DNA of 64,000 bases from Botryllus schlosseri (Eukaryota): the NCBI GenBank assembly GCA_051294905.1, contig CM119372.1:37512001-37576000 (forward strand), in the 5' to 3' direction. A program made the translations under genes and the position numbers. The notes beneath the pieces are model-generated. The model was not told where the DNA came from, did no database searches, and saw nothing but the letters and a program-made list of their open reading frames with translations. Each line of letters opens with the position of its first letter. The first letter of the stretch is position 1. This document shows positions 1,820-54,870 of this stretch, in pieces.

Positions 1820-2032
1820 CCAATTGTAATGGAAATGTTGGAACACTGGTCTTGCAACCTGTAGGGCCATGCTCAAATGTGTCGACGGCTGTCACCACAA
1901 GGCCAAGTCCCTCAATAGCAAAATCAATTCCAGGGTCGGTAGAAAGCCCCGAAGATATTAGGGTCCTCGATCGTCGTAAAAATCGTTTAGCTGCATGCTG
2001 CATACTTGTGGCTTTCTGGTGACACCTGCTTC
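1820..2032 (-). CDS. Candidate internal exon of the same host gene
   Basis: TTTGACAG| acceptor, open frame SRCHQKATS...VPTFPLQL and G|GTAAAT donor. Its phase is compatible with the 7154-7430 exon. Confidence 0.35.
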
Positions 2033-7153: not shown

Positions 7154-7430
7154 TTAGTAACGGTATTTTGTCTTGCAACTCATGATTTACATGACGAGTT
7201 AACCAAACACGTTTATGTATACTGTAGATGTGATGTATTGATCTTCGTAAATAGAACACATCATTGAGACTGTTGGCACTACAATCAAATATTTTGTGAT
7301 TGCATCTTCGAGAGCGCACGTCTCCATCAACTACCATCCTATTCCCGTAATTGGTCAATATGGAAACGAGGGAAGAGAACGCAGCCTTGCAATGATACGT
7401 CGGCCCAAACAAGATCAGAGTCGTAATAGC
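7154..7430 (-). CDS. Candidate internal exon of the same host gene
   Basis: CTGCAG| acceptor, open frame AITTLILFGPTYHCK...QDKIPLL and AA|GTGAG donor (phase 2), in non-repetitive DNA. Confidence 0.35.
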
Positions 7431-12669: not shown

Positions 12670-14780
12670 CCTTTGTCCGACTGCATATTTTTACACCGCT
12701 AACAGGCGGCATGGGTACAATTGTACCCACGTACATTTTCCATTGAAATTTCCAAGTTAGTTATATTTTTGTACGGTATGCCGTATTTATTGGTCAGAGC
12801 GTTTAAATACTGTGCTCTGGGGAAGTATAGCACGTGTTGCTGCACCAGTTCTCTCTCCATTCCCCTTTTATTTTTATCATCCTTTCTGCCCCTGCGATCA
12901 GCTATCGTCATGCCAGTCGTCCCACTTCGTTTCCTCTCCCTTCGTCTCTTGCCTTAGCTGTTCAAATCCATCATGAGTCCAGAGATGTGTGGCATCATAC
13001 TTAGAGAAACAAATCGAAGACTAGAAGAGTTTATGAAGCTTTCAACAACAATCTCGCAGAAAGATTTCGTAATGCTTCTGAACGGCCACCACTAAGAACA
13101 TTCGAGCCCTTCACTGAAGTTGAGCTCAGTGCATTTATTGGCATCCTTATTGCTGCTGGTGTACACAGGAATAACAAAGAGAATCTGGACAATATGTGAA
13201 AAGTAGATGCTTTGCCTCTTATACGTGCAGCTATGTCTCGTGACCGCTTCAAGTTGATGCTCAGATTTATCAGATTTGACAACGATAATACACGTGCAGA
13301 GCGTGTGCAAACAGATAAATCTGCACCAATACGAGATCTGTGGCTAATGCTGAATAAAAATTTCGAGAGAGCCTACAAGCCACATGAATGTATCACGATA
13401 GATGAACAATTGTTTCCATTTCGAGGACATACCAAATTCACACAGTATATACCATCTAAACCAGCTAAATATGGTATCAAGGTGTTCTGGGCTTGTGATG
13501 CATCAAACGCCTACCCACTGCATGGTCAGCTTCATACTGGAAAACCAATAGATGGTCCCCGACAAACAAATGTTGGTGAGCGAACAGTTTTGGACCTGGT
13601 CTGTTTGTATAAAGGCTCTGGAAGAAATGTCACCACCGATAATTTCTTCACAGGTATGCAGTTAGCTAAAGTATTGAACACCTGCGACATGACTTTAGTT
13701 GGAACAGTCAGAAAAAACAAGAGGTTTTTGCCAAGCAACATGCAGCCTGGCAAGGAAAGAGCACTTCACTCGACCAATTTCGCCTACCATCGAGATGCAA
13801 CAGTCTGTTCATATGTGCCAAAGAAAAACAGAGCAGTTGTGCTTCTATCATCTATGAACATGACCGGAGAAGTCGAAGCAACACAATCAAGCAAACCAGA
13901 GATCATCAGGTACTATAATAAAACCAAAAGGGGGGGTGGACACAATGGACAAAATGCTGGGTGAATACACAGTAAAACGACGGACAGTGCGTTGGCCTTT
14001 GGCGTTTTTCTATAACATGATCAACGTCACTGGCTTAGCGTCGTTTATCATCTACAGCGAACACAAGCCAGTGTTTAGGAAAAAGGACCAACGGAGAAAG
14101 TTCCTGAAAGATCTTGCGAAACAGCTATGTATGCCTTCAGTGGAAGCTCGTTCTAGCAACCGCATGATGATGAGAAACCGCTTCCTTCGAGCTGCAGTGG
14201 AAATGGTTCTAGTACGGCCCATTGCAACACCACCAGAAGGGGCAGAAGCTAACCCCAAAGAACCCCATGGAAATCGAGGAGCTACACCGATTGTTGGCAG
14301 TTGCTATGTCTGCAGAGATCAGAAACGAAAACGACGTAAAACCAGGAAAGGCTGCGTGGCTTGCGTTCAGCATGTGTGCGACGAACACTCCATAACAAAA
14401 ACAAAGTGTATTACTTGTGACACTGACTAAACCCATCTCGACTAAGTTTTCTCTCATATTTCTGTGTCAAATAAATCATTTCTGTACTCTGTTTCATTCA
14501 ACATTCAAAAATTGTCTTTGTGTTATGTATACTGGCATTATTTAGATACACAATGTGCAAGGGTACATTTGTACCCATACCGCCTGTTAAGGGCGTAAAA
14601 ACAACTCGACCCTGAATCTCGGTAACGTGTAAAGATTTTTTGCCGACATTTAGTCTGCATAATCTAACACAGAAATGTAGAGATGTCAGGAGGTTTCAGG
14701 TCTCTCGGGTTTCTAGAAAAAAGACTGTCGTATTTTAAAATTGGAATGGGTACAATTGTACCCATGCAGTCGGACAAAGG
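12670..14780 (+). mobile_element. piggyBac transposon (defective)
   Basis: Perfect 17-bp TIR CCTTTGTCCGACTGCAT/ATGCAGTCGGACAAAGG flanked by TTAA on both sides (12666-12669 and 14781-14784). GGGTACA.TTGTACCCA subterminal palindromes at about 12713, 14561 and 14748. Confidence 0.95.
12958..14430 (+). pseudogene. piggyBac DDD transposase pseudogene (PGBD4-like)
   Basis: Motifs MSRDRF, IDEQLFPFRG, YIPSKPAKYGIK, TDNFFT, YNKTKxGxDTMD and a C-terminal Cys-rich domain (CYVC...CVAC...VCDEH...CITC). The N-terminus is missing, there is a TGA near 13198, and frameshifts occur near 13020 and in the G-run near 13930. Confidence 0.92.
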
Positions 14781-14784
14781 TTAA

Positions 14785-15030
14785 AATAGTTTCGCTCCGA
14801 GCTATATCGAGAACATTGCAACAAGAAATGCTCAGCCGTCTCTATAACACCACATGTTGCACAGAGGCCATCGTTGCGACAGACAATTCTACGTAAGTGC
14901 CCGTTCAGCTTGCAGTGCCCAGTCTGAAGCCGTAAAATAATACATTTATTACGCAATAACACAGTATTGTTAATGCGATGTCTGCCTTTATGCGTGGCCT
15001 GGCCATGAGTCTGTAGCAAAGTGTCCTAAT
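14785..15030 (-). pseudogene. Non-LTR retrotransposon (LINE) ORF2 C-terminal fragment
   Basis: ILRLQTGHCKLNGHL...CATCGVIETAEHFLLQCSRY matches the RxxTGH...CxxC...ETxxHxxxxC zinc-knuckle tail of LINE ORF2 proteins. It is interrupted by the piggyBac TTAA. Confidence 0.8.
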
Positions 15031-15650
15031 TAAGCGCAGTCGACTTAATGTTGGAAAGTAAATGCAATGCCATTTCTATCTGTCCACGACGACTTCAACG
15101 TTTCACCTGTCATGAGAAACTTGACTTTCTGCTATTCTAGTATTTTTTAAATGCGGGTCATAGGTTTTGCCCATGGATATTGTCGGAGGTGGATTCACCC
15201 AGGTATTTAAAACTGTTTTATCCCTTTCTGCGTCTTTGTGCTGCACCAGAATGAAAAAAATTGATAGTCAGATTTGGTTTGCCATCATGTCCAATACCAA
15301 AGCCAGTTGATGGATATAGATTCCAGTCGGACGGATTCAGTATTAGTGGAAGTAATTGGTATATATTCTGTATCCTACGTCTTAGGTATGCACGGTACAG
15401 TGTACATACTCTGCATTTTTCCACGAAATGATGCCAAATGTTTTGCTATCAAGTAAACCGATACAGTAACCATTCTGCCATGCCCAAAAAGGCATTAGGA
15501 AAATAACCCGAACTCACATCTGAATCCTCCATACTGCGAGTGAAATCCCACATATTTGAAATAGTTGCATGTACCAGTAGAGACTCGAGAAGATTAGTTT
15601 CATCAGTCACGTCTTATAATTAATTTGACAACAAACTTCGAACACCATAC

Positions 15651-15768
15651 CTATCCTGCCTCTTGATTGGCCTGCTTTTTTGTGGATTCCGGTAAGTCTG
15701 CTAGCATAGACGGATTCGGTGAGCACCAAAAAGCACAACGCAAATTTTAATACCGTCAAGGCCAGCAT
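15651..15768 (-). CDS. Candidate first coding exon of a host gene encoding a secreted protein
   Basis: Acceptor TTATTACAG| at 15820, ATG at 15768, a signal-peptide-like MLALTVLKFALCFLVLTESVYA, and donor AG|GTATGG at 15651. Confidence 0.45.
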
Positions 15769-16137
15769 ATATTTCGTCAAAGAATTGCGAAATACAATAC
15801 GATTCTCTACGGACTCGTTACTGTAATAAGGCGTAACTATACACTGCTGCACAGCATACATGTACAATGTACATGTATAACAGTTGCGCCATCTATTTGC
15901 AATCGGAATGTCGCTCTCGACAAACACACGCTTAAAAGCGATTCATCGGAGATAAGCCGTGTTGATTATAAGTCAGTGATAGTCAGTGGTGGCTTTTGGG
16001 GTAGGCGAGGTAGGCGGTCGCCTAGGGCCCCCCTGGTTGATTTACGCGCTTTCGAGGGCCCCCCATCCTCGGTTCACGCGCTTTTTCCAACTATTTCTCG
16101 GGTTTACGCGCTTTTTTTCAAGTATTACCATTTTCTG

Positions 16138-16731
16138 AATAACCGCGGAATCCTTGTATCCCTAAAGAATATGGTATTGTGCCGCAAAGACAGGTCAATC
16201 ATCAATTCTCACTTTTTAGTAATCATTTTATGAATAACCACAAAAATCCATGCACCAATGTAGAATATGGTACCGTGAGCAGTAGTCGATCATTAAATTT
16301 CTGCACTAGTTGCAAGAGCTCACTTTGATTTGATGATCTCCATCCATTTTGCCATTAGCTAAAGGCTTCCCCCTCCTACATTTACGCGAATGTTATCATT
16401 TTGCAAATAACCGTGAAAATACATGCACCCATGTAGAATGTAATACCGCACACAGTAGTCAATCATTAAATTACTGCACCCGCTAAAAGCTTACTTTGAT
16501 TTTATGAGGGGGGCCCCCCCTTCTTCATTTACGTGATTTTTGGTTATCATTTTACGAATAACCGTGAAAATATATGTACCCATGTATAGCATATGGTACC
16601 GTAAACAGTAGTCGATCATTGAATTTCTGCATCCGATAAAAGAGCTTACTTTGATTTTATGAGCCCGCCTCCTACATTTATGGGAATTTTAGTTTATCAT
16701 TTTGGGAATAACCGTGAAAATACATGGTAGG
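16138..16731 (+). repeat. Subterminal tandem repeat (about 150-bp unit) of the CAGTGGTGGC element
   Basis: AATAACC...GTAGTCGATCATT...CTTTGATTT units start near 16138, 16232, 16405, 16556 and 16706. The last unit is split by the hAT and resumes at 21018. Confidence 0.85.
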
Positions 16732-19700
16732 CAATGTTCCCTCTAAGCTGCGCGCGTGCGCAAATGCGCAGTACTGAAACGGTCTCCGCGCACAGAAAAT
16801 CTTGGCCGCGCACAAAAAATCCGAAGTGATGACTTTTTTTTAATCGTTGCGCACTGTTGTCCAAGGCACCGCGCAGGCGCTCAGACTCGAGAAAAATGAG
16901 AGGAAACATTGCCAGGGGTAAATAGTGCTATCGCTGAAGTCTGAAACCGAGGTAAGCCTGCAGCCCGCAAAGGTAAATATTGCGCTCTGCGAAGCAATGA
17001 GAATTTGCAATCGTGTGCGCCTCACGAAACAGATTTTTTTTTAGAATGATATCGTACGCGTGAGCGATACTGATATCATTTCAATAGCGCATTCCTTGTG
17101 GGAATGGCGATATAAAATGGTGTAACGAAGTTGTAAATAACAATGGGCTCTAGCTCGAAGTTAAACTACGAGAAACTAACGAATAGTCTTGTCCGCGTGG
17201 CATGATTGTTATGTAAGATTTACTTTACAATTGCATGTCGCGAATTTTTGAAGTCATCACTTCCATCAGGCAAATCTGATCACGTATGGTGATATAGGGT
17301 AATATGCAGAATATGCAAGTACAAGCACTAATATTGTTGAAAAAATCCATCCCTTTGCAAACGTTGATCAGGAAATGCAGCAACTATGTGCACTTTAGGG
17401 CGTTGCGTTGGATCAGCTTCTCAGCAGCACAAATTTGTGATTTTATTCGATTAGTTTGAACGGGTATCTTCTGTAGATAAGGTCATACGGTGATCTTGTT
17501 CTTGCTTCAATCAGACTTGAATATTCGTATCATTATATCTGACTGTATGTCTTGAAAGTAATGAGTGCGTTGCCGGTATCAAGACGTCACATCAGTGTTT
17601 TAACGCGATAGGCCTACATCGATCGCATGTATTGATTTCGGGTGCGTTCTCGTGCGTGTATGTCTGTCTTCTAGTAATCAACATACGTACATTGATTAAT
17701 TGTGACGTCACACGTAGTCGCACAGCATTACGATTCGCCGTATATAGTAATTGCGGTTACATGCGTCCATTTGTGTCGCTATAAGTGTTTTAGCTAGCTG
17801 CTTGCCGGTGGGCCAACGTTGAGTGAATACTCACAAATTCTGCTTAGCACTGTTTCTACTGACCGCTTTTAATGATGGCAAAACGAATGGGTGGTTTCTC
17901 ATCCCCCCACCAAGCCAAATTGACAAAGAGCTGTGATTCGTTTAAAATAGAATGGTTGTCGGAGCACGTGAAAACGGAAGACAAAACTATAAAATTACGT
18001 GAGATTTTTTCTTTCTCGAGCGAGAAAGGTCTAATGTGCAAAAAATGTCGAGAAGCCAAAATATCAAACGAGTTTTCGGATGGTAAAATGTGGAAAGCAT
18101 GGAGGCTGGATTACCTTAAGCGTCACATTAAGCACAAAACCCACGTGAAAGCGGTCGGAATCGTAAGAAGGTGCAAGATGAGAATTGGAATCGGTACATT
18201 ACTGACTGAGAGCATCAACGATCGAGAGAAGAGGAGCGAGCTGTCACTCGTGAAGAAATCCAACCCCGAGCAAGTTAAGGTTCTCGTCGACAATATTCTC
18301 CTAGCCATAAACATGAATACTTCTATGCTGTCAGTTCAACAAATTCACGATCACATGGCAAAGTACGTGAGTGTTCCAGAGAGCTGGCGAAGCAAAAATT
18401 ATGCCTTTGAGTTTGTGAATTCTATCAATCAAATAGTGCAGAATGAGACAATGTGCAAACTTAGAAATGCACATTGGCACACTCTGATCGTGGATGAGAG
18501 CACAGACATAACAGTGCACAAAATGCTAGTGCTTTACATTAAATATAGAGAGGAAAATGAGGTCGACTACAAAACTGTGTTTGGAGGCATTTCCCAGCTG
18601 ACTGGATGCACCGCTCGGGATATTGTGCAGGCAATAACTCAGTTTTACGCCAAGCATAAATTAGACATGCAGAGAATGGTGATGCTGACCTCCGACGGTG
18701 CCTCAGTGATGTTGGGAAAGCACAACGGAGTTGCAGCGTTATTAAAGCAGCAAATACCACATCTAACAGAACAGCACTGTGTTGCCCATAGAGAAGACTT
18801 GGGCATTGTTGATGCATGGAAAGATGTCCCGGCGATGCGTGACGTGGAAACGTTTCTTACAACGGTGTATTCCACTTTCTCTAGATCCACTGTAAAAAAG
18901 GGGAAATTGGAAGACCTATCGAAGATTCTTGATGAGGATTCGCTGTCATTCAGACCTCTGAACGAAGTACGGTGGCTTTCGCGGCACCAAGCTGTGAAGG
19001 CTGTTCTGAGGAACTACACAGTTCTCGAAGAATACTGCAGGAGAGAATCATCCAGTAATTATAGAGATCCAGTGACAAAATACTGTTACAAAAAGCTGAC
19101 GGATTCAAAATTCAAGTTTATTCTCACCGCTCTGGGAGATGTTTTGTATGACCTGGCACAACTGTGTCTTTCTTTTCAAAAACGCAATCTGACTGTGATG
19201 GAGGGACACTGCCTTGCAAGAGCAAAGATTGAGAAGCTGCGTTCTCAGTATCTGAAAGAAGGAAAGGTTATCAAGTGGAGTGACCGCGTCAAAGAGGTGA
19301 TGAGGGCTGGGTCAGCTGAAGTCATAGATACCGACGCGATTATTTGTTTTATTCGTAATCTTTGCGATCACTTGGATGCTCGATTTCCAGAGAATGAATT
19401 GAAGGAGTGGTCTGCATTGGACTGTGAGGCATTGAGTTCAGATATCAGTTCTGACTTCGAGTACGGAGCAGCAGACATTGCCATATTAACAAAGAAGTAT
19501 GAGGACATTTTCCACCAGCCAAATTCTATGGAGGCCATTCACGATGAATATCCTGATTTCAAATATGTTATGAAGCAAAAATTGAAACAAGGATCAATCG
19601 GAACATTTTCCGATATGGTGGCTGCGACACTAAAATGCGAGGAGCTGAAGCACGTCTCACAGCTTGTGGATATTTGTGCTACATTTCAAGCATCCAGTGC

Positions 19701-21017
19701 GGATTGCGAAAGAGGCTTTAGTTGAATGAATCGGATCAAAACAGCATCGAGAAATCGTCTTCAAGTGGCTCATTTGGACCAGCTGATGCGCATAAAGTCA
19801 AAACTGAATACAGACGATGCCATTGACCTGGACAATGTATACAACCATTGGAGAGCTGAAAAGGACAGACGGGAAAATAAGGATTAAATGTAAAGGGAGA
19901 CTGCGATCTAGATACGACGGGGTCTTAAATTTGAGATAAATTTGTGAACAATTTTGGAAGCACTCATTTTTTTCAGAAAGGCACCGCACTCGAACTGAAG
20001 CCAAAACACCCTCAAAATACGCGACACAGCACACGTGCGATATCCATGATGTCTAGATTTATCGTTATTGCGCATGAATGCGTCTTAGCCCTTTGCGATC
20101 CCACAGATTCGCACGTGTGCTATGGTGCATATCCCGAAAATATTTCAGTTACAGCCGAAATTCGCTGGCTTTCTGAAAAAAAATGCCCTCAATGGCCGGG
20201 CGTCAAGTCAAAACCACATCATGTTCAGAGCGCAGTTCCCCTTCTTCACTCATAATGAGATTATTTGGTGCCATGCAATAGAACTAAATGTAAATGTTGT
20301 ACTGTGATTCTATCAATAAATAATGTGACTTGAATGGATACACGCACGTCTGGTTTTAAGCACAGGACCGTAACTGCCGCACCCAGACCCCCCGAGCTCG
20401 AAGGGGCCGCAAATTATTGAAATCAAATCGTGAATTAACATAAATCATGGAGTATGTTTTTGGAAATTTATGCAACTTTTTCAAAGAAGAAATACCAATT
20501 TGAAAGGTGTACGTCTTTTAGTTTAGTACGTTTGGGCGATTTCAATATCTTTTGACATAGCAGATTGGAGGTCACGAAATAGCATCAAGTAAGTAAGTCA
20601 TTATACCAACGGGTAGGCAGGCCTACGCCCGAAGATATTCAATTATTATTTAGGGGTCCTACCTTTTCCAACACATCTCACTCAATCAGGTTAACCGGTA
20701 AATCTGATTACGTGAGCAGAGACAGGATAAAAATTGATAGCAATATATACGCAAATTCCCGATGATATTGACCGATTTGATCATGAATTATAGATAAAAT
20801 TTCGCGCGTTTAGCCGGAACGCCCACTAAACGAAGACCGAACATAGATGACTAGTAGCAGCGAAAAGCGTGTAGGCCGAGGGGGGTCTGGGGCGCGAAGC
20901 CCCCCAGAAGTTTGATTTATCACCCTATAGGGGGCCTGGTTGCGCACTGCTGTCCAAGGGCCTGCGCAGTGAGTTGGCGTATTTGCGCAGACTCGTGAAA
21001 AATTAGAGGGAGCATTG
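16732..21017 (+). mobile_element. Full-length hAT transposon
   Basis: TIR CAATGTTCCCTCTAA/TTAGAGGGAGCATTG with a perfect 8-bp TSD ATGGTAGG. The empty site is seen in the paralog near 62037. Contains the transposase. Confidence 0.95.
17872..19887 (+). pseudogene. hAT transposase (ZNF862-like) with a single in-frame TGA at 19723-19725
   Basis: N-terminal CxxC...HxxxxxH finger and motifs VDESTD, SDGASVM, HCVAH, VRWLSR and SSADCERGFS. After the TGA the frame continues MNRIKTASRNRL...LMRI to TAA at 19885-19887. Confidence 0.9.
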
Positions 21018-24000: not shown

Positions 24001-26999
24001 CTAGTTGCCTAAACATCAAATTTTAGTGACTGCATGTTATTATATAGGTCTGCGCACTGCGCGAGACTGGAGCTTACGGGTAAGTTCTTCGAAGCGAGAA
24101 GACTTGCATTATCGGCATTTACGATGTACTCAACCCTAATGAATTGATATTTTGGTAAATTTTGCGTAAAGGGCCTTGTAAAACGCGTTGAAACCTTAAT
24201 TGAGGATTGCACTGCGAGTTAGTTGATCAGAGAGAAGCAGACATGGCGGCGCCTTATGTCAATACTGTTCTCAAATCCACATTGTATTTTCATTATTGGC
24301 GAGAAATGGCTTTGAAGTGACACTGCTGTCGATAACATACATTCGGTTCACATATACCTAGTACCCTCTGTTACACGAAGAACACTGTTGGAAATTCGAG
24401 AGAATGGTTGTAAAAGAAGTGAATTATGACGAAGCATATAATTTATTGAAGTTTATTTGAACTTATATGGAACAGATGAATTTAACCCCACCAAAAATTG
24501 ACGTGTAAGCGTAAAGAAAATGGTAGAATTGTAGTGTAGAGTAATCTGAACTTGAGGGTATTAATGTGGTGTACGTATAACAAGGATAATTGCTAGAAAC
24601 AACCATAAATTGCCAGAAGAATAATTCGTCGGCCATTTTAAATAAAGCGGAGTTTGAGGTCGACAGCGGTAGCCTATGATTCACGGCAATCACATGTTTC
24701 AAAATAACGGTTAGCGCTTGATGCGATGCGAATTCAGGAAGTTATAAGGAGCCGAGGCCGAATCGTGACACTTAGTCATTTCTGCTCGTGCACGAAGTCG
24801 TTATAATGGGTCATTTATAATGATGAGGGAGATTAACTCGCACACGAAGCTGTGCCATTTTGGTAGCTGATAGAGCCGAAAACAATTGGTTAATGAGTAC
24901 GGCTGGTCCACGAACTGTGATTCATAAAGAATAAAGAGAGAATAACTTGTCACGAGCTAGGTCCGAAATTAATTACCAGCTATTAAGTAAAGGAAGTCTT
25001 AGTTTTTTTTGAATCAGAAACCCATATAATCCGCTGCGCAACACAGTCTAATTCAGTCCGATCTGGACTCGCAACACGGAGCAGAAGGAATTGAAGCTTA
25101 GAAAGGACACAGAAGCAAGGCGGCCATCCTTGCACCGAGGCTACGGCAAAGATCACAGCGCTGAGTTGAGTACTTTATAAATATTGCGTGTCCCATGTAG
25201 CGGTAGCTAAACGAAGTTGCAGACGTGGAAGGTTGGGGTTTTGCTCGGTTTTCTACGCGCTTGAAGTAGTGCGCACCAAGTCGCCTTGTGCTTGCGCCCT
25301 GTAAAGAGAAAATTTAGTTCACCGAATATGAGCCCGATTGTAAAAGGCCGGCCTGTGTTTTCTTATTCGATTGTCTTTGATCGTGCTGGTCCTTTCAGTT
25401 TGAATCTGAGCCCCTGGGCTCACAGATGCGAGCGGCTTATGGTAAAAGTTTCGGGGACAGCCCGTGGGCCGCATGCACCCATGCCTATGTTTCGGACGGG
25501 CCGCGGCGGAATTTGGAAATTTCAAGTGTTGAACAAAATATTTAAAGGCCACGTACCTTTTTAAATAAAAAAGGTTGAAGTTCGCTCCAAAGTTGCTGTG
25601 GAAATCCCGGCAAGTTTTGCCATAATATGGCTCTCGAAATTACAAATTGCGGTTGGCATATAGGCGATCCTGTTGGAATGTCTGAAGTACTGAGTTTTTT
25701 TTGTGTCAAACGTAAGATACTATCATAAGTAATTTGGATTTTTTTGACGATTGTGGGATTCTCGTTTATGGAGACCCGTCGAATGGGGCCCACTTGGAAT
25801 TGCTATATTGAATATCCCTATTAAAAATGCCGTGGCCCGCGGCACCCCCAAGGCTTGGGAGAGGGGCCCGCGAGCATGTCCGAATTGGAGCCTCTGGATA
25901 GAATAGGGAGGCGTGAAATGATAAAGTAATTAACTTGGTAAGGTAGGCCTTGGAGCCATGACGGCTACCGTAGGTGTGGGAAGGTGTCTGATTTAAGTGC
26001 ATGCTAATTCTAGTTTTTCTATGGCTCTTTCAAATATTTACCTCTGACAGGTACCCTGAAACGAGGGTCGTCCATCGTCGAATATTATTACCTATTCTAG
26101 AAACGTATTAGATATAAGGGGCGGCGGAATCAGGCTTAGAATTGCTGCGATAATTCCGGCACATACGAACGCGGCCGTGGACAAGGAACTCACACTACGT
26201 GGGAATTGCGATGAGATGGTATAGTTTCAAATCGGAAAATAAGCCAAGGTTGAATAAAATTTAATTCGTGTCACATTTTTTCCTAGGCTGGCAGCCTCCA
26301 GCGGGATTAGTCCCTAGATCAGAGCATCCGTCGCGGACTTGTGGACGGCGCGGGGGACGGTGTCTCTATTGCCACAGGTCCAAGATGGGCTCTGTTCCAG
26401 TAGTGATTAGATAGAGTGTAGTTAGGGTGGGATAGGTCCATTTTTAGATGATTGCTCTTTAGTAATCTTGGGCCCAAGATCCAGCACTCGTACCGATGGC
26501 AACTAAACCTTATGTGGAGTTGCTTCATGTGCCGTAGATCTCCCCGAGAAGCATTGCATAGCCCTCACGAGTCATGGCACACATCGATCGAGTCTAGACT
26601 ACGGCCTGGAAAAATTTTGTAGGAACGGAATTAGAATAGGTAGGGCGAAATCTAGAAGCGTAACGTCCTTGGTTCAAAAGGAACCCTAAAAACCCACGAG
26701 GGTGTATAGGCATAAGACCGGCCAATTCGTGGCTAGTAAGGAGGTTATGAGTGACGGTGAGGTAGTTTGTAAAATTAGCAATAATTGCACGAATTGCGAG
26801 CTTACAAGACCGGCCAGAGATTGATTAGTCTGGCCGCCTCTGTTGAGATGTGGTGACTAAAATATCAGTCCCGACGCAATATACCAGATCCACTAGTCGG
26901 TCACATTTTGGTAGGTCTTCGTACAATACTATAAATAAGCAAAATAATTTGAGATGGATTTATCAAAAGTAGAAACTTCCTACACGCTTTGCGCAACAT

Positions 27000-28191
27000 A
27001 CCGCTCGATTGCTTACCTCTAATAAGGTTACCTCTTTGTAAGAATGAAAGAAACACCTAAGGTATCAGATTGAGCCGGACTGCATTTGGCATTACGAGAT
27101 AAAATGTCCCGTGCCGTTTGCGCTCACAGAAAGATCGTCGGCTATGAAACCTAGGCATGGTTGAAGCTTTCGTTAATAAGGTGTCCAGGCGCCGAATAGT
27201 TCATCTTCGGACTGGCCCGCGACATAGCAAATAATTATCGCAAAAATGCGACATTGCCACGGTATAATAGTAACCTACATCGTCTAAATCAAATGCGTTA
27301 TGCCTACACGAGTGTATGAACTGAGAAATGAAATAGCAACTTTCCTCGAAAACACAAATATCGCCGGCGCATAGTCCCGCAATCGAAAATGGGTATCTCA
27401 TCTTGCTTTCCTGGTATATTTAACGCCACATCTGAACAAGTTTAATTTGCAACTCCAGGGGGAAAACAACTAAACGCGTGGGAGGTCGGGGCACATTTAA
27501 AACAAATCTGTAACTCTGGAAATGTAGACAGTACAAAGAAAATTGTGCTCACTTTCCTATGCTGGAGAAGGTACTGTGGTGCGACATTTAACTACTGAAT
27601 ACTCACCCGCGTTTCCGACATTCCTTCTCTACAAAATGAATTCTGACTATTCAGTGCTCTGTTTAATGCGGACGCCGATACCATTGCCTGTAAATTTCAA
27701 AAGGCCTTTCTGAAATGCGATGCAGTTGAATTGAATGACAAAATTTATACAAAGAGCTTATCGACAAAGAGTACGTTCTTGAAATTGGTCTTTATCCCAG
27801 CTTGAATAGTAATGCAAAAGGAATTGCATCAAATTTTGGAAGCTCGTACGCCTGTGAACAGTAGTTGCAAACAATAAAATTCACGAAGAGCAAGTTAAGA
27901 TCACGTATTTTTGACGTCCATTTTGAATAAGGGTCTGATTCTTGTTGCATTTGACTTGTTACCAGAAGTTGAAAACCTTTCTCAGAGCAAGCCGCGTCAA
28001 TTGTCACAATTGTTCTGGGCTGTTGAGGTGTAGAATACGTGTGTCTTCTGATGGATATGATTGGGATTGCAGCAATGTAGGATAATATACCGAAGTGAGC
28101 GTAGAATATAGTACTAGGGAAAATTTCGGCCCGCCAAAAAGTTGTACACCTGAAATTTGGCCCGCGGCTAGCAAAAGGTTGCCGACCCCTG
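27000..28191 (+). pseudogene. Decayed hAT transposase (SPIN/GTF2IRD2-like) with its right TIR
   Basis: KWVSHLAFLVYLTPHLNKFNLQLQGE near 27390-27465 and FGSSYACEQ...KSKLRSRI near 27835-27910. Ends in AAAGGTTGCCGACCCCTG. The left boundary is approximate. Confidence 0.75.
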
Positions 28192-28700
28192 CTGTAAGTA
28201 TCATTTGACTTGATTCGAGGCATTGCGACTCTGCACTTTTAGACCAAAATTTGTTGAGTCCACCATCAAAATTTATGCTGGATGGGGGAGGCAAAAAAGG
28301 GGTTGACCTGCAATGGCCTGCATTGACGATGTAATTTTCGGATCTTTATTTGGAAAAATAATACGACTTGTAATATGGGCCAAGTTTTCGTCCCGCTAGT
28401 TCACAATTGACTAACCTGAAAATATTTGCACACCCCTGATTGAGCTAGGTCAGGGCCAGCCAACCTGTGGCCGCGGGAAGGTTTTGAATGGCCCGCGACG
28501 TAATTTCTTAAATTACGAATTGTGGTCAAAAACGGATCCCACAGAATGTGATGGTTATAGCTATTCTGGAACACAGTGCAACTGTATAAAAAGTGCTAGT
28601 CGTTTTGAATTCAAATAAAGGGAACGCTGAAGGACAGAGAGGGTCCGAATTATATGACAATTGCTAAAGAAAAGAAAAACTGACTTATGGATGATATCAG

Positions 28701-29831
28701 CAGAGGTGGTCAAAGTAGTCAAGAAAGCTACTCAAGTAGGAGTAGAAGTAGCGACGGAAAAATCTACTCAAGTACAAGTAGAAGTACTTCTTCAATAAAC
28801 CACCTAAAACTACTTGAAGTAGAAGTAGAATTAACTAACTTTATATCTACTCAAGTAAGTAAGTAGTTTTGAAAACAGCCTTAATTCGTTCGCATGGACT
28901 GTCAAAAGCTGCGAATTGAGCTATGCGGCACGTGCAGGGAGCTTGATTCGTATTGATGCATCCCAGGAGGTATCAATTTTCAACATAATAAGTATTGTTT
29001 CGCATCATGGGATGCAAATTATAGTACTGATATGAAAATGCGATGCTTATCTTTTGTTTACTGGAACACCCCGTTTTTAGAGAATATCATGGGATGGCGC
29101 CCTACCCCATATTATAAGGCCACAAGTTTAGGCGAAGAGCAATACGTAGAAAATGTATCGGATACGGTTACATCACTTTGCGTGATTATTATACGTTAAT
29201 TAAAATGCAATACAAATACCACTACTAAAAAGCGGAGAATATATTTCCTGTATTTTGTCTACAAAGCTTAAAAGGTCATCTGCTAAAACAGGTGTAACGT
29301 TCAAAAAAGCTGGATTTTTCAGATCATCAAGACACGTAAGGGGCTGCTAGATTACAATATGATAGGCAATTGCTAGATCGTGAAACGGTAGTTTCAAACG
29401 TTGTGGTGGGCCATATTTACTGTGGTGAAATATTTGATAAAGACGACAATGCGGTGTGAGAGGAACCAAGCAATCCGGTACCTAAATTACATTCACTGAT
29501 ACTTTCACGAAAACATATTTGTCACTCCATTACTACTATGCGCGAAGCGCAATAAAATTCCTGGGCTTTACTTGACTCTTATGAATATTAAATGTTGGTA
29601 CTCCATGAAAACAGCTGCGGAATTCCTCAAGTTATCGTTCGTATTGGGGAATTAGACTACTTCTACTTGACAAACTGAAAATAGCGAAAAGTAAGTAAGT
29701 AGATCACAAAATATTACGAAGTAGAAGTAGAAGTAGAGAAAATCAGATCTACTTGAATAAGTACCAGTAGTAGAGGAAAACTACTTGAGTACTTCCAAAA
29801 AGTAGAAGTACTTCGTGACTGACCACCTCTG
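28701..29831 (+). mobile_element. Complete hAT-type MITE (CAGAGGTGGTCA family)
   Basis: Perfect 12-bp TIR and perfect TSD GATATCAG at 28693-28700 and 29832-29839. It sits inside another hAT remnant that begins CAGGGCCAGCCAACC at 28451. Confidence 0.93.
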
Positions 29832-30754
29832 GATATCAGTCATATTCTGTTGTAATTCGAATGGGTGATGACATATGAAATCCTTCGCGAATGTTGCCGT
29901 TTGTTCTCAAACATGCGCGATATATAGTCCTAGTCGCCATGGATGAAACAAAGAAGGCTACACCATATTAACACGTTTTATCGATAGTATTCAAAACGGA
30001 TCATGCTTAACGGTATTGATCCATATCTGCAGAAACCCGCTCGAATTATCAATACGAAAAATATGTAATTCATTTACGCGAAAATTTGAGTAGAACAGTT
30101 AGTATAGTTTAATTAAAGTCCAGAGATACTAATGTCTAGAGATATAAAAGCAGGGAATGACGAGTGCTTATGCCGCGTTTAGTCAATCAGTATTAATAAT
30201 ATTTTCATCATTTCAAAACACCACGAAACTGCGATCCAGGGCAGTCGCACTAACTATCCTGTCCCGTGTAGTAATTAACTGAGACAGATTTGGCGAGATG
30301 AAAGTGTCTAGTTGAAAGTGAGCCTGACTCCAGACAAGATTTGAATATGCCGAAAAACACCCTATTATTTCGTGTAAGCTTACATGGGCCGAACTAGGAC
30401 CAAGAATTAGTGAGGATGACAAATAATCACTAGCAGCGATAAAGTTTCCGTAGGGTATGTTGCGGCGTTGTAAATGTGTAGTATCGCAGCGCGTCAATAA
30501 ATATGTGCCGTTCGCTGTGCATATTCATGCCGACTATAAGGCGGGTGCCTTTGTACCTAGATATTCCATGGTTTTGTCAGCATTTTAGAGCATTCTTGTT
30601 TAGTGTTTTTGAGGACAATTTACCTCGCTGACGTAAGATGAAACGCACTAACTCAAAAATAGCTTCAGAAATATACCAACTTGTCGCATTAAGTAATAAC
30701 AAGGACAAAGTCAAATTGGATTTATTATTGGTACTGCAAGCAGGCGACTCGAAC

Positions 30755-30950
30755 CAGGCTTGGACAACTAAATAATTCTAGTTGTCTAATTTCACTGAAT
30801 TAGAACGAAATGCAAGTAATCTAATTCTAATCTAATTTGGATAAAGCTGCTTAGCTCTAATTCTAATTTTAACATAATTTGGAAAAGCTGTGTAGCTCTA
30901 AATCTCATCTAATTGGGAAAAGCTGAAAATTTTCCAGTTGTCCGGGTCTG
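30755..30950. mobile_element. Small MITE
   Basis: CAGGCTTGGACAACT...AGTTGTCCGGGTCTG with TSD ACTCGAAC/ACTTAAAC and internal TCTAAT/AAAGCTG repeats. Confidence 0.6.
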
Positions 30951-31230
30951 ACTTAAACAGAAAATATATTTACCTATATCTGAACGTCACAAGCGCTACT
31001 AGTCCGGCAAGGTCAATACACTCAATACCATTCTGATCAGGAAGTCAATGCCCCTGTGGAGACGCTGTAAATGGTCATGGAGCAGCGGGTCAGTTCGTTG
31101 GCTACTATGTCCATTTTGTGTTGTCACATATATCGGGCCTTGTGTCGATTTTACGTCGTAGCGCTGAAGCGCCAGTATAGTTGCCGACTATCTAATCGCA
31201 AACAACAATGTCAGCGGATTTCAAATTGCT

Positions 31231-31406
31231 ACATCGATACCTTTGGTGCTAGACCTTGGAGAAGATCGACTAATATTCCAAAAGTTTAGGGCTACTATTG
31301 TGATTAATAAACATTGATACCTTTGGTGCTAGACCTTGGAGAAGATCGACTAATATTCCAAAAGTTTAGGGCTACTATTGTGATTAATAAACATCGATAC
31401 CTTGGT
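31231..31406 (+). repeat. 80-bp tandem duplication (about 2.2 copies)
   Basis: ACAT(C/T)GATACC...GATTAATAA repeats at 31231 and 31311, with a partial third copy at 31391. Confidence 0.9.
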
Positions 31407-34099
31407 CACTAACTAGGATTAATAAAGGAGTATAATGTAACCGGAATTACTAGGCCTATAACATTAGGAATACTTCAGGCCAGTACTGCTAATATAAAGA
31501 CCTTAGAAAAGTAACCCATGGTTGAACTTATCCACACATTCGTTTTTCGAAACTGATGTGTCGATGATGGAAAATGACACTAGCCTAAAACCCGCTTTGT
31601 CCGCGTATTCACTTTACGAAGTGAATGCGCCTGACGAACGCCATTTTGTCGCATCGCAATCATTACGTGTACGAACTATGAAAGTTTACTGTATTGGCAA
31701 AAATCAATCTGCAAAAGGGTATTTTCATGTGAGGGTTTACTATGACGTATTATTGCAACGTGACGCCTATCTTTCTTATATTGTTCAAGTACTGCATTTA
31801 CCTAATCTTTGACATCTACCATCATATTCCTTTAAGATGACGCTAACATGTCTTAGATATAGGTATAAGTTATGAACATTTAATATGAGAATAGTTGGCT
31901 GTTACTGCGGTAATTTAATAGCGAATACTACAACTGTAGGTATTAATAAGGCGTCATAACTGACCCCGCCCCTATACTAGTGTCAGGACCCTTCACCCCA
32001 ACGGGACAAAAGTTTGAAAATTTGATGTGTAATGGACCATAAGACAATAGTAACATGGGTATTTAAAGACCTCTTGGGGTAACGCATTGGAGCATATGTG
32101 AGTTCGAAATTCGCGATAAGCCTAGTCTATTGCCTATGAAGCACGATATATACGAATGAATAAAAAAGCTTAAGCACACCAATACTGGAGATTAAGGAAT
32201 ATAGCATGATTACAATTGGGATATTGGTTCACATATGACTATTATAAGTGAGATGGTATCATTTTGTGCTTATCTGGGACTGTGTCGTATGCATGTTAAG
32301 TGTTAGCTATACCATCAGTTGCTTTACCAAAAATGGCGCCACCATTTTTTCATGTATGCGAGCTTTTACAGTGAGCCGAAGTATGACTGATATATGTATG
32401 CATATCTATGCCATGTATGATGTCCACATGAATTGTACAATCAGTTGTAGTATCCAATTATTGCATATAAAGACGACATCGGTGCGTCCGCTAGTTTCGG
32501 CGAACTTGTGACTCTATGCCAAGTAAATCCGCCAGTCTGAAACAGAGCCCCAAACGAAGCATCCAGTAGCAGACTATATCCAGAAAACCGGACATTGACG
32601 GAGGCATTGCGAAAGGGTTTGACGTCTTTTGAGATTGAAGGGTGATGTTCCGATGTCCCTCTGAAAAATCTTGACATGCTATTGATTGGATCGGCTGCTT
32701 GCTGCAGTTGCAAAGTATACAGAAATAAAGCAGCGCGATGAAATGGGTGCGACTGCTAACCGAAATTGCAATGTATACATAAATGAAGCAGCTCGATCAA
32801 ATTTGCTGGAATAGCTCCATAAAGCCGATGAGCTAAAGATGGAAAGAGCCAAGAACATGGAGGTATTGCATTCGGGATATCGTTACAACGAACCCTCAAC
32901 AAACCCTGCGTTCTATTGGACTTGGAATGCCCGATCTCCGAATCGACAGCACGCAAGTAGGCTACTTGATGATCCTAAGTAGTAACGACTCAAACAAGGG
33001 GTCGGTTCCTGGACTAATTGCAGTTTGATATCTGCATCTGGAAGACTGGGGAACTCTTATAAACAAGGTGGTCGGCAAATTGGTCAACTTGAACTCTGTG
33101 TGGTATTGTTTTTTTGTGGCATCGATTGGCATATTTTTTGTATATTATATGCATGTATATTGTCGGCAGGAAATACCGTCACATTTATGGTGTAAACACA
33201 CCTTGGAGTATTGAACTGTTATTAATCGTGCATGAATATGAATAGGTTAAATCTTGACTCGTGTTGTGATTGACGTATGTTCCGTGTGCCAACTTAACCG
33301 AGTTTTGCATAGATACTTCATTGCTGTCTGCATGATAATTATTGGAGTATGTTGGTTGTATTAAGCCAAGGGGCTTGTCTATTGTATGAATAGTTTGAGC
33401 CGCTGGACCTTCCAAGGTCACTGCTTCGTTCGATCAATCTACAACCAATGCTTCAATCAACGTCGACAAAACCGGGTTGTATAAGGGGTGTGGGAAAATG
33501 TGGAAAAGCCAGGAGATGGGGTTGAGCTCTGTGAAGTAAATCGAACCAAGTGTGGAATACTTGCATGGCAAGCGCCATGAAGCTACACTATAATCAAATG
33601 GAGGCACCAACTGAACTTCTTCCAGGGCTGAACGTCATTTCTTGGCAATTTCAGTGGACGGGGGAGAGTCTGAAGACGAACACATCGATTACCTCCTTAC
33701 TATCTGCGAACGCCAATCTATGAAAAGAAAGGATCGTCGAAGGATCACTACTGGGGTTTTCTGCGCCGACACGGGAAGCGTCCTCAAATTGAAAAACGTC
33801 GTAGAAACCTAAATACCCGCCAAGCTGGAAAGAGCGGCAACCTATAGACATGAAACTACGTGATATAGGTGACTCCTCCCACGTTGACTCCTTAGTAATA
33901 ATCAATTTCGACGGACTGTCGGCTCCATTTGCGATCGAGAAAGGAGACCTTTCGATATTGTAGGACTAAAATGGATTGATCATGTACAACAATTATCAAA
34001 CATAGCGACTGAATTTGAATCTCCGCCTAATGCAAACGAAGAGTTGTCTTTAGTAACGCTTCATGACGAGATCTCGTGTGATCAGCGGGACGGAACCAA

Positions 34100-36308
34100 A
34101 GTCGGAAGCAGTCTTCGCGACACTGTAACCGATGATGGGTTGATGGAAGCTGCAAATCAAATAAGCGTCGAGTCGGCACGTTGTCTGTGTCGCCGCAGGC
34201 CGTTGCCGCTGGCGCAAGTGTCGAGATGGTAATCACCACTGGCGCGAAATGTGTCGAGTCAGGAATCCCTGCTGGCACCAATCATAAATACGCCGATCTT
34301 ACGACGGCAACTGTCTTACCTTCTTTCCCAAAAGGTCAAAAAAATATGGGAAATCCCTAGTGTTGGGTCAGGTAGCCCCTGCTGGCACTAGTCGAGAAAG
34401 TGTCGGGTCAGTTAGCACTGCTGGCACTAACTAAAGATGTGTCGAGTCAGGAATCCCTGCTGGCACCATTAATGAAGACGTCGAGCGCGGAATCCCGGCT
34501 GGCGTAAATAAGGACCTGCACGAGAAAACTGGTCCTAAATGCTCTCGTGGATGCACTTGTCCGAATAACTGTAATGATTCGGCACATAGATGCATGACGA
34601 CAGCCACAGTCATGAGTACTACCCCAAAAGGTTTAAACAAAGCAGCTATTGCCGGTCAACCGGATACACGCCCGGTCATGTCCGGCAAGGAGTCTGGGGA
34701 TTTTAAGATGCACGTCTCCCCATAAACGGGCCCCGGCGGCGACCGAATCCGCCGGCGTGACGGTAGGCGTGGGCACACGCCGAGATCAGAGGTCAGATTG
34801 AATAGGTTGGGAATCCCCGCTGACAACGAAGAACCTCGCCCTCTCTCCACCAACACCAAAACCCCGTTCATCACGAGATTCGCATTGGGCCAATAACTGG
34901 CCCAATTACTATGTAGCCTAACCTTACAACAAGACACCAGTCCCAGCGTGAAGACGGAACTCGAAAGTCTCTGTGCACAATCGGTAGCACTGGCGAAACT
35001 GTCATACAAACCTCCTGACTTTTGACTGGCCTTGAAAATATCGCCATTCCTGAAGGAGTCTTGACAGCCGTTTATGATCCATTTTCTTCCGAACTTGATA
35101 GCCTGCGGGGCCAACTCAGCGCCCCCCAATCCATGAAATACCAATGCGACATCGGACGTAATGACCCATCGAATAAGCCTTTCGTTTCTGGCCCTTATAA
35201 CCCGACGCTGGAGGGTCAGGCGAAGGCACTAAAGGAAGCAATAGATATAATACCTTATTTTGGTATTATTAAACAAGGTTTTGCCGAATGAAAATTGGCT
35301 ATTTTTGTTGTTCATGAGAAAATGAATGAATTACTACAAGACAAGGCGAGTCGCACTCGATAGTAGCAAGACGGACGTCAGAGGTAAACCCCATCCCAAG
35401 AAGTGTACATGATCGCTTACTACAGTCCGACGTGGTTAACTCCAGCGGCGAAAGACTATGATCCAAGCACTGCAGCGCTGAAACATCTGGCACCCCTAAC
35501 AATACAATGACGAATGAAAGCGAGACTGGTGCAAGTAAGACGATCGAAATCGATGGCTAACAACAAGGGGGAGTATAAAACTGTCAAACCAACTGATGCG
35601 ACTTATGGGAAGCAACAGTTGCAAACTCTTCGCGCGCGAAACAAAACCGACGGAATGACGAAAATCATTGGTGAAACACCTACAACGACGCGAGTGCATC
35701 CGGTTACCACTGCGAAGGCTCTGCAGAACTCCACAGAAGACGGCAGGACCGACATCGGAACGGACTACCAAAACCCGGACCACAACCGTAAGGTAAGTAC
35801 CGAAACAACTGTTTTGTATTCAACAGGAGACGACAAAGACGACTCGTCCCCGAGGACTGTCGAACTAATGAATACTACCTTGGAGTCAACGATGGCTGGC
35901 GCATCACCTCTGCCTGGGCAGAAAAACCAAAGGTTGGGAACACCCTAACCTGGATATTCCCGACTATCAAGAACCCCCGTGGGGAAGACAACCACAGATT
36001 TCGTTGAATACAACTATACACGATGGCTGCACGAACTGGTGATGATGGAAGGTGGATATAAGGTAGGAGAATTATCCTCGATCGATAGGGTTATTATGGA
36101 AGGTGCAAAGCTGATACCTATCATGGAACCGGTGGTTGTAATATTGGTGGTAACAGGGTTGATGGCTCTGGTGATTGTGTTATGGGTAGGTTGTATAAGG
36201 TGTCGTCGACGTAGAACCTTGAATCTTCTGGGGAACACGAGGAGACGTAACGGAACAAGTCAATGGATGGCGATAAGAGTAATACGGAACACAACGGAGA
36301 ATGACTAA
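34100..36308 (+). pseudogene. Decayed ORF(s) for a type I membrane protein with a Thr/Ser/Pro-rich, repeat-containing ectodomain
   Basis: GTCGAGTCAGGAATCCCTGCTGGCAC (VESGIPAGT) repeats at about 34250-34510 and 34810, a Thr-rich frame at 35514-35948, and a hydrophobic segment VVVILVVTGLMALVIVLWVGCI followed by RCRRRR. Confidence 0.5.
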
Positions 36309-39276
36309 ATCCGAAGGTAAGAATTGGTGTTTAAGATTTAGATGTAAATACGAGATTTTCATAGTTTGTTATGGGGAAGTAATGAAGTGTAACGTTATAA
36401 TTTTGGTAAATCGTTAAGAAAAGTGGTGATAGGTATCATGCGTACAAAACAAATCCTTTGGCGCATCGTTTATGATGAGTCCCAAGCACTCCGTATTTCA
36501 CGTAATGGGCGTTAAAGGAAAAAATGTGAGTCATGGTAAGATAGCTATGTAACGAAGCATAAATGAATGGCAGTGCATCGTTTATAATAGGTATCAAGTG
36601 AATTACTTTACGTAATGGGCGTAAACGGAAAAAACTGAAACCTCGTAACTAGAAATCTGCTGAGTCATGAAATATCAATTCGAGAGAAATATAAAAGAGA
36701 AAGGTTGACGTGTAAAAGTACTTAGTCAATAAAGTGATCACCATGAACGGGTAATGTTGGTGTATAGTGCACTAGTTCCCATACATTCAATAAATACGAT
36801 TTATTCCTTGCATATATGGGCGAATAATTGATCCATTCAGCAATCCGGCTCGCCAAGTACTTAATTTTCCAATATCCGGCCCGCCGACTAAAGAAGTTGC
36901 ACGCCCCTGCTCCATAAGAATATCATCGCATTTCCGGTACATCGGCATGAGGCACATGCAAGTTTGAAGTAAATACTCGCAAAATAATTTATAATATAGG
37001 CGCACCCATGAAATATCCCAGCTGCAGGCGATCAATACTGCAGCGATCTGCGCGATTATTAGTACAGTATTTTGTTGGGGTTAGTGTGGCGAGAATTTCA
37101 AACTAGATCTACCCCACTCCCTGATCTATAATCCTAATGCCTAATGCGAGAGTGTTTGAGATATAACCAATGAGATGTAACCAATAAGATATCTCGGTAT
37201 GTAAATAGTATAAACATGCGCATAATGTTTTATAAGAAATGTAATCATCAATCAATCACATTGAGCATCAAGTACGTTGCATTATGATTGCTTGTAAGCT
37301 CTCGTCGCTCAAGGAATGAGGTAGTTGGAGTAGCCAACATTACCAAATACTGCGTCACATGATAGACTACGCTCGGAGACGTCGTGTCTAGACTCAATAG
37401 AATATATATCGGATAAACATTACTGTTGTCATTATTACATCACAAAATCATGTCATTCCAAGTGCTCGTAAAACCGTTGCACAAGCGTGTATTTGATCCT
37501 ACACAGCGTTCATGTTCACTAGGGTTGTTCAGATTTGAAAAATTGTCAGGAAACTTCGACCATTGTGATCCAAATGATGGTTTAGTGCATAAAAACACTT
37601 TTATGAGCAATTTTGGTCATCTTCATCGCGATCTTCCTTTTCCTCAAGGCCCCCAAAGATGCTGAGGTCGTTTCTCCTTACTACAGCTGATACACCAGAG
37701 TGTTTACGGTGACGTAGTGTTCTGTAGTGTTGACCGTGTAACCAGTTTGTAACTTTTGTGAAGTTATCAGTTGAAAACGGTTGTGTAGAAATGAGAAATT
37801 GCAAGGTAATGTATTTGTTTTTAAAACTGTACTTAAATATCGTCTTATACATGTCAGATGTATCTCCGTTTTCTTGTTCAAAACCTGTCTGTCGTGTTCA
37901 TGGGAAGCATTTATTAGTTGCACGGGTGACACTGGTTTGTTATGGATCGTACCTCGAAGGAGCGCCGTTTGGTTGCAAAGTCGTGAACAAATGCAGAGAT
38001 TTGCAACTAGTTTTTAGGCAGTAAATGTTATTGAAAGGTGTATGATATGTAATGTCAGTAACATTTGCCTCATTTTTAGTTTATCTGTAAAGTAACGAGT
38101 TATCTCATTTGATGGTAAAGTGCAATTTAGTAGATGAAGAATGCCTAACACAAAGCGGAGAAAGGTTCTGCCGGATCCACCAAGAACAAGGTCGAAGTCT
38201 GGTCACTATTTGAGCGCTGAGTGTATAAGTCACTCAAAGTTACCGACTCTACGTCAGGTTCTTGAATCTTTGCTATATCTGAAGGAAAACGGCCCTAATA
38301 CCACCAAAACGCAGGAATTTCTTCTTCAAACTGTTCAAGAGGTTACAAGAATATATAATGACAAGAATATATAAGGAAGGAAACGCAGAACATTGTTCCG
38401 ATGCTGTGAAAAGTTCATGAAACTTGAACTGTGTTATATTAAAAAGAACATGGCTCGGTCAAGTGACGTTGAGGGAAAGCGCCAAGCATTTTGTGATAAA
38501 CTCGATAAGTTGTGCGACATTGCGACGCAATATCACTTGTAAAAAGAGATTCGCAGTTGTCACCATCTCAGAAAAACGAAGACATCGAATTTTATGAGGA
38601 CAAATAGTATTCTCGTAGCGCACAACTCGCAGGAAAATATAAGACTTTGAGAGAAGCCAGGCACAGATTCCAACTGAGATCAGTGACGAACCTGTTTCAG
38701 CATATGCGAGCACAAGCAGTGATGAATTTGTCACATTAATGTCCTCGTCATTTGAGATAGAAACCAGTACTCCACCCTCTGATTATGATGCTGCACAATC
38801 AAATATCCTTCACGCTACTCCTATGCTACTTAGGGATTTCATACAGGCATACGGAGGGAATATTGACGCCTTTGTGCAATACATATCAAGTATAAATAGA
38901 CATATAAAGGCTAATCTACCCAATCATGCTGCTATACACTGGGATGGAAAGTTGACAGAAGACAGATTTGGAACAAACTATGAAGCAGTGGCTGTGATAT
39001 TGTCTTCTTATCCTCTGCATACAGATGAAAAATTACCTGGAATTTTTGATAATAACAATTGTCGCAAGTCACGAAAATGTTATAAACGTGCTGATTATTT
39101 TCTGCCATAATCTGCTTCATAAGTTTGATTATGCAAAATGTTCTCACAATAAAATTCATTGAGTTTCAGAAACATACATTACAAGAGCAAGCGTAGTATC
39201 ATGAACTTGTTGCATTTTCACAATTCTGCTTCGTAGGTACCCTTGTCATATTCCACACTATGACAACCTTTTAGAC

Positions 39277-53974: not shown

Positions 53975-54870
53975 TATGATGTCTGGGTGTTTTTGAACAA
54001 CGTTTCAATTCACATATCTTAGGGGCTTGTCAGGGGTGTGTTCGAACTGCGTTAACACTCGGACATCATGTCTGAGGCGTGACTGGAGTAAGTTCGGACT
54101 GCGTTGTCTATCGAACATCATGGTAGGGATGTGTTCGGACTGCGTTATGACACTCGAGCATCATGTCTGGAACACATTTAGGGCATGTCTGGGGTGTGTT
54201 CGGCCTGTATTGACACTCGGATATCATGTCTGAGGCTTGTCTGGAGATAGGTTCGGACCACGTTGTTAATCACCCATCATGTCAGGGGGTATTTGTAGCG
54301 CGGTGGACACTCGAACATCATGTCTGGGACATGTCAGCGCATGTCGACGGGGGGGGGGGGGTGTTCGAGCTTCGTTGACACTCGGACATCATGACTGATG
54401 CATGTCTGAAACAGGTTCTGACTGCGTTGTCTATCGAACATCATGTTTGGGATGTGTTTGGACTGCGTTTTTACATTTGAGCATCTTGTCTGGGTCATGT
54501 CTAGGGCATGTCTGGGGTGTGTTGGGCCTGTATTGACACTCGGACATCATGTCTGAGGCATGTCTGGAGATAGGTTCGGACTGCGTTGTCAATCGAACAT
54601 CATGTCAGGGGTGTGTTCGAACTGTTGTTGACACTCGAACATCATGTCTGGGACATGTCTGGGGTGTGTTCGAAATGCGTTGACAGTAAGAAATCATGTC
54701 TGAGGCATGTCTGGAGTAAGTTCGAACTGCGTTTTCGATCGCACATCATGTCTGTGACATGTCTGGGGCATGTCGGGGGCGTGTGCGAACTGTGTTGACA
54801 CTCAGACATCGTGTCTGGGCATGTCTGTGGTGTGTTATGGTGTCTGGGGTGTGTTGTCGTGTCTGTGACG
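53975..54870 (+). repeat. Complex minisatellite inside the CACTG element
   Basis: Many interleaved CATCATGTCTG, GGGTGTGTTCG and TTGACACTCG modules with variable periods of about 40-55 bp. Confidence 0.9.

Follow-up and report, generated by a model that had tools for sequence, protein, structure and literature searches.

A block of 12.4 kb (24345..36779) interrupts a miniature inverted-repeat transposable element (MITE) in a 64,000-nucleotide stretch of the Botryllus schlosseri genome (the window; GenBank assembly GCA_051294905.1, contig CM119372.1, positions 37,512,001 to 37,576,000 of the forward strand). The block is a retro-derived unit without long terminal repeats (LTRs) that combines the insertion marks of a DNA transposon with a polymerase (pol) type devoid of integrase, and it is apparently much-copied. 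On balance, it is probably the deleted, decayed and non-autonomous remnant of an LTR-less retrovirus-like element, and a Merlin-type transposase acting in trans probably moved it as DNA. The parent would have encoded a pol composed of protease (PR), reverse transcriptase (RT), RNase H (RH) and a Tpt1-like domain, with no integrase, and intact relatives would have provided, in trans, the Merlin/IS1595-type transposase that placed the whole block in the genome as a single DNA unit. Decay and the arrival of at least one nested MITE would have preceded amplification, such that the copies would have spread without enzymes of their own; the left arm would be a rarer, older internal variant. No functional product is demonstrable for this copy.

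Insertion site and termini

The two flanks of the block carry the exact duplication CATACATTC (24336-24344 and 36780-36788), and removal of the block together with one duplicate leaves a gap-free junction when compared to both other copies of the MITE in the window. Reads and contigs of 4 of the 24 listed runs were placed on the window for depth and junctions; the joint 24336→36781 is present in nine contigs of run X1 and two reads of run X23. The first duplicated position is A in both other MITE copies and C at the block, and an 8-bp target-site duplication (TSD), ATACATTC, with a right end of …TTCCC at 36780, fits as well as the 9-bp reading. This private C is required whether the duplication is 9 bp with termini GG…TCC or 8 bp with termini GG…CCC. 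The TSD is 8 or 9 bp in length, both fitting equally; the first-pass annotation, which had described a MITE split with a 9-bp duplication, was correct as to the split and the exactness of the duplication, and too definite as to its length. The boundary features are as follows.

24336..24344, plus strand: left TSD, 9 bp, or 8 bp from 24337
24345..25240, plus strand: left end; starts with GG, no clean terminal inverted repeat (TIR), four 10-12-bp words found at the right end in the same orientation; run X1 depth 2,500-5,000
36309..36780, plus strand: right end; 110-bp tandem duplication, AATAAA at 36728, finishes with CC (36779) or CCC (36780); contig match halts at 36783
36780..36788, plus strand: right TSD, 9 bp, or 8 bp from 36781

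The termini read GG at the 5′ end and CC at the 3′ end, with no LTR, no TG…CA pair and no clean TIR (10/25 ungapped inverted identity), as had been noted previously. Unexpectedly, four words of 10-12 bp recur exactly, and in the same orientation, in the first and last 250 nt, against 0.1 expected; none of 500 shuffles reached this count, and no inverted word was seen. The words are located at 24393-24508 and 36552-36715 and differ in order between the ends. Among 2,526 windows, the top count of words of at least 10 bp shared with the left 250 nt falls at the right end, and the reciprocal comparison gives the same result. The shared words bind both ends to one element. The words do not follow the same order, and direct local alignment detects no significant likeness between the ends (p 0.05-0.12); coverage of the left end by right-end words is significant for words of at least 10 bp only (43 nt versus 2.7), weak at 8 bp or more (p ~0.02), and absent at 7 bp or more. 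An origin of the left end by patchwork repair was weighed and set aside, the coverage signal being confined to words of at least 10 bp and fading for shorter ones. Another, loose cluster lies at 24770-24850 and is similar to the 110-bp repeats of the right end. A contig of run X2 aligns over 36354-36783 (6 differences in 430 nt) and continues for 663 unaligned nucleotides; on either reading of its coordinates the match halts at the right end, and this end is thereby supported as a family boundary. Hairpins at the ends were not significant (z 0.5 and –1.0), Rfam and tRNA searches returned nothing, and the end patterns had no matches in metagenome, viral and prokaryote collections.

The lack of LTRs, the GG ends and the 8- or 9-bp duplication call for insertion by something other than the integrase of LTR elements, whose TSDs measure 3-6 bp (PMC12440569). 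Merlin elements offer a candidate: according to PMC8101967, they start with GG and duplicate 8 or 9 bp of the target, and in one family 12 of the first 26 TIR positions are mismatched. The block resembles Merlin/IS1595 (IS1016-group) elements, as described there, in its GG termini and in its 8/9-bp duplication (seen at one copy). It differs in having no DDE_Tnp_IS1595 domain, although non-autonomous copies need not carry a transposase, and in carrying retroelement pol and glycoprotein-like remnants. Merlin TIRs span 24-462 bp and may be imperfect, compared with the 10/25 ungapped identity of the block ends and a gapped p of 0.008-0.44. The 9-bp duplication had earlier been taken as a pointer to Mutator; with its length ambiguous between 8 and 9 bp, the combination of GG ends and duplication suits Merlin, as covered by the same source, at least as well.

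Pol remnant, tail and relatives

The retroelement parentage rests on the right half of the block. A phmmer search of 1.84 billion proteins (E≤0.001), using the plus frame 33000-36305 with X at stops as the query, returned 12 proteins (best 5e-27), and in every case the best-matching stretch lay within the RT N-terminal region. Together, tblastn and profile searches place protease, RT start and RNase H collinearly on the plus strand at 33750-35591, contrary to the earlier impression that no RT motif was recognizable. The features of this half are:

31900..33700, plus strand: abundant, stop-riddled region upstream of the protease, containing Cys-rich stretches and hydrophobic ones; searches assigned it to no family and did not match it to the relatives' gag
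33750..34100, plus strand: aspartic protease remnant; DTG at 33768-33776, split over frames by frameshifts, profile independent E-values (iE) 8e-10 and 6e-7
34218..34523, plus strand: 39-bp repeats in the protease-RT linker
34897..35351, plus strand: pre-RT helix and RT N-terminus; RT part 35034-35330, 51% identity to P0001 over 99 aa, iE 1e-30
35331..35399, plus strand: internal deletion junction; 69 nt replace 317 residues of P0003, including the YIDD catalytic motif
35391..35591, plus strand: C-terminal part of RNase H, in frame with the RT piece; weak alone (iE 0.001-0.003)
35650..36308, plus strand: Thr/Ser-rich (22%) tail; three N-glycosylation sequons lie upstream of a single hydrophobic segment of 19 aa (at 36132, mean hydropathy 3.1), and the end is basic

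The tail continues the frame of the pol remnant, with six internal stops over 35019-36308. Among six stretches subjected to a coding test, this one (plus strand) was the only one clearly coding (0 of 200 Markov controls). The tail is predicted to be type-I membrane glycoprotein-like; a word-index search with 35019-36305 found no homologue, and the Atlas returned generic small membrane proteins only. The first-pass annotation had spoken of glycoprotein-like cargo; this cargo is not anonymous, being a decayed retroelement pol fused in frame to this tail.

Further retroelement components were sought without success. RT core, Tpt1 and gag had no match in the block (best E 0.15), and no integrase was detectable in it. 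Pfam searches of 30 X-read frame pieces of the block gave no family, including no transposase and no DDE_Tnp_IS1595, in agreement with the earlier failure to see a transposase motif; of 16 shorter pieces, five gave sub-threshold matches only. PHROGs (six open reading frames, ORFs) and protein scans of viral contigs gave none, and PDB sequence searches with five frames gave one chance match (E=0.25). RING/BIR-like stretches suspected at 32.3-33.4 kb were dropped for want of Pfam support, and an alternative genetic code was rejected, as all three stop codons occur. The first-pass suggestion of a virus-derived element moved by a DDE enzyme fits the decayed retroelement pol, with the qualification that no transposase was found in the block.

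The relatives provide clues to the parental pol. Two of the 12 phmmer proteins, P0003 and P0011, reach the pol end, and both contain RT, RNase H and, at the usual place of integrase, a Tpt1/KptA RNA 2′-phosphotransferase-like domain, with no integrase family; the Tpt1/KptA match lies above cut-off in P0003 (872-969, 42.5 bits) and below it in P0011 (894-967, 22.3 bits). The best PDB matches of P0003 are a Ty3-type RT (1e-22) and chain 8r0s (2.6e-22), which we take to be a caulimovirus polyprotein, and the only sequences recovered by a word-index search with P0003 were P0003 and a single ordinary pol with integrase, 26% identical to it. A gag zinc knuckle lies upstream of pol in P0012 (from Styela clava) and in L001, a marine-metagenome contig with three overlapping plus frames of 504, 280 and 845 aa at 3-4701. 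These frames appear to be gag-like, zinc-knuckle and pol parts linked by frame changes; the predicted fold of the gag piece was uninformative, with a predicted local distance difference test score (pLDDT) of 49 and no PDB match at E≤0.001. The occurrence of pol relatives in Styela clava and marine assemblies indicates that the putative class is not limited to one genome.

A different origin of the block is unlikely, yet deserves consideration: an unrelated non-TIR Mutator-like element (MULE) may have captured a decayed retroelement piece as passive cargo, in the manner of Pack-MULEs, with Ricksha as an animal precedent for the capture of foreign cargo. The 9-bp reading of the duplication, the lack of a clean TIR and the heavily decayed cargo are consistent with this scenario, as are the 8-11-bp TSDs, absent or degenerate TIRs and foreign cargo of MULEs (PMC6446971), which include an animal group of non-TIR MULEs with 9-bp TSDs and no TIR. 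However, the 30 frame pieces searched with Pfam hold no MULE transposase remnant, the duplication is equally well 8 bp, and the cargo forms a single retroelement remnant, collinear and in sense orientation. The G skew on the plus strand of both arms (0.157 and 0.063, versus 0.010 and 0.004 in the flanks) is that expected of one sense-oriented unit. Moreover, the cargo's pol type lacks integrase and would need some other inserting enzyme regardless.

Abundance, nested repeats and transcripts

The interior of the block had been described as unique. Summed contig depth in run X1, which does not equal copy number, is 13,200-16,200 over 31.5-35.1 kb and 7,200-8,500 over 35.1-36.4 kb; it falls to 2,500-5,000 in the left 900 bp and to 460-820 at 25.2-26.6 kb. 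The description no longer holds. Identity between long contigs and the right half is 98-99%. One long contig (34439-36316, 16 differences and 1 gap) covers both deletion junctions. The depth at 31.5-35.1 kb is 16-35 times that at 25.2-26.6 kb, and depth in the left 900 bp exceeds by a factor of 3-11 that of the inner left arm, for which the listed RNA-type contigs are ~85-92% alike. The features of the left arm and the nested repeats are:

25241..26600, no strand assigned: rarer left arm, coding not demonstrated; depth 460-820, RNA-type contigs ~85-92%, G-skewed on the plus strand like the rest of the block
26800..28700, no strand assigned: nested very-high-copy repeats, boundaries approximate, no Pfam family
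28701..29831, no strand assigned: nested hAT-type MITE with an 11-bp TIR and the 8-bp TSD GATATCAG; occurs next to many different sequences in the runs
30755..30950, no strand assigned: second small nested repeat with loose ends on either side

The repeats at 26800..28700 have no Pfam match, and we assume them to be hAT-like from their end and protein motifs. The hAT inserts had been regarded as later arrivals. A contig at 29787-30782 (14 differences in 996 nt, depth 80) joins the right end of the nested MITE to element DNA, so this insertion is likely older than the amplification. In the left arm, the frame-bias test for 25.0-26.8 kb (p=0.14, best frame on the plus strand) does not bear out the minus-strand coding suggested earlier, and coding is not supported on either strand; 24345-26800 was marginal in the coding test (p=0.035). 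The left minus frame had no homologue by word-index search, the Atlas gave no usable match for the left ORF, and the predicted fold of the left arm was uninformative (pLDDT 30). A suspected integrase-like motif near 25330 was dropped for lack of Pfam support. Elsewhere in the element, a near-perfect 80-bp tandem duplication occupies 31231-31403.

The contrast between the arms raises the prospect of a local chimera, in which recombination or repair fused an old left arm with the right half of a young element of high abundance and created the duplication in the same event. The 16-35-fold depth step and the identity step from 85-92% to 98-99%, masked by the nested repeats at 26.6-29.8 kb, would suit such a history. 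We regard it as very improbable, since the MITE was split without losing sequence and the duplication is exact, the ends are GG…CC, each 250-nt end is the other's top match in shared words of at least 10 bp among ~2,500 windows, and the left 900 bp exceeds the inner left arm in depth.

Single-cell reads form a one-orientation pile at 32840-33286 (106.6 versus 0.32), where no protein was recognized, and we infer that it represents plus-strand RNA. The deepest contig of run X5 near this pile is just 85-90% alike, so the RNA may come from a relative; the drop in depth of this RNA-type run from 115 to 5 past 33733 likewise suggests a short transcript from a relative. A remnant of the same parentage could instead have spread through RNA, its plus-strand transcript being reverse-transcribed in trans and the cDNA inserted by a transposase. 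AATAAA lies ~50 nt before the right end, all 16 single-cell reads at 36524 share one orientation (10 starts), the ends have four direct words in common, and the reading frame is kept across both deletions. Nevertheless, the non-collinear words and insignificant direct alignment leave no usable terminal repeat, RNA depth varies greatly from one part of the block to another, and the RNA-type contig runs may contain DNA. This route appears somewhat less probable still than capture by a MULE.

Several observations count against movement of the block as DNA by a Merlin-type transposase. With gaps allowed, the ends show a borderline inverted likeness over ~30-50 bp at a 6-7-nt offset (36 settings, p 0.008-0.44), and without gaps they are more degenerate than the worst published Merlin case (PMC8101967). 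No transposase lies in the block itself. A further copy showing both ends next to another TSD was not demonstrated among the best-supported loose ends listed. Summed depth is not copy number, the left end (2,500-5,000) is well under the right half (13,000-16,000), and the 1-2% differences between contigs may be partly allelic. Finally, the parents could have an integrase in a separate ORF, a point on which 10 of the 12 phmmer proteins, being partial, are silent.

Elsewhere in the window, a piggyBac-type transposase is encoded in two frames at 13200-14430 (DDE_Tnp_1_7, E 1e-44), and a 620-aa hAT-like transposase ORF spans 17863-19725 (zf-C17orf113 and DUF4371 below cut-off). A 155-aa open frame at 38643-39110 belongs to no Pfam family. 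Tandem arrays occur at 54356-54768 and 61418-62129 (~42/52/158 bp and 148 bp), with a related 153-bp array at 16369-16726.

Comparison with known systems

Caulimoviridae possess PR-RT-RH without integrase. They resemble the present element in this integrase-less pol and in the match of P0003 to 8r0s, presumably a caulimovirus chain; the block differs in its animal host, its defined ends with a clean TSD, its membrane-anchored tail and the Tpt1-like domain of its relatives. Ty3/Gypsy elements (Metaviridae) and the Troyka/Kuafuorterviruses are likened to it by the relatives' order of gag (zinc knuckle), protease, RT and RNase H, with an RT nearest to Ty3 in PDB, and in the block itself by protease-RT-RNase H as a deleted remnant. 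In contrast to these, the block has no LTRs, which Kuafuorterviruses possess (PMC11673190), and no TG…CA or CG…CG ends; its TSD is 8-9 bp rather than the 3-6 bp of the source cited above, and integrase is missing from both the block and the two full-length relatives (2/2), which end in the Tpt1-like domain. The nearest published analogy in the sources accessed is Teratorn, a fusion of herpesvirus and piggyBac of 41-182 kb with 18-bp TIRs (PMC6431247), which likewise places virus-type genes within DNA-transposon ends. The block differs from Teratorn, as described there, in being a small defective retro-type unit.

Neither an element combining RT with Merlin nor a Tpt1-bearing pol was described in the literature searched, with subscription journals and Repbase outside its scope. 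We see an even chance that the block is a non-autonomous, post-decay satellite of an undescribed class, namely enveloped, integrase-less PR-RT-RH-Tpt1 reverse-transcribing elements that insert by a Merlin-type transposase, and that the same-orientation motifs of its nearly TIR-less ends may be cis signals for reverse transcription and insertion. Insertion of the Merlin type would be an unusual route of genome entry for a retrovirus-like element. If the main reading proposed here is true, retro-type elements would have gained a DDE-enzyme partner on a path independent of the classical LTR integrase, and would have given rise to a non-autonomous family of their own. The abundant, near-identical defective copies would then map the minimal ends needed for movement, and would make the choice between a DNA and an RNA route testable.

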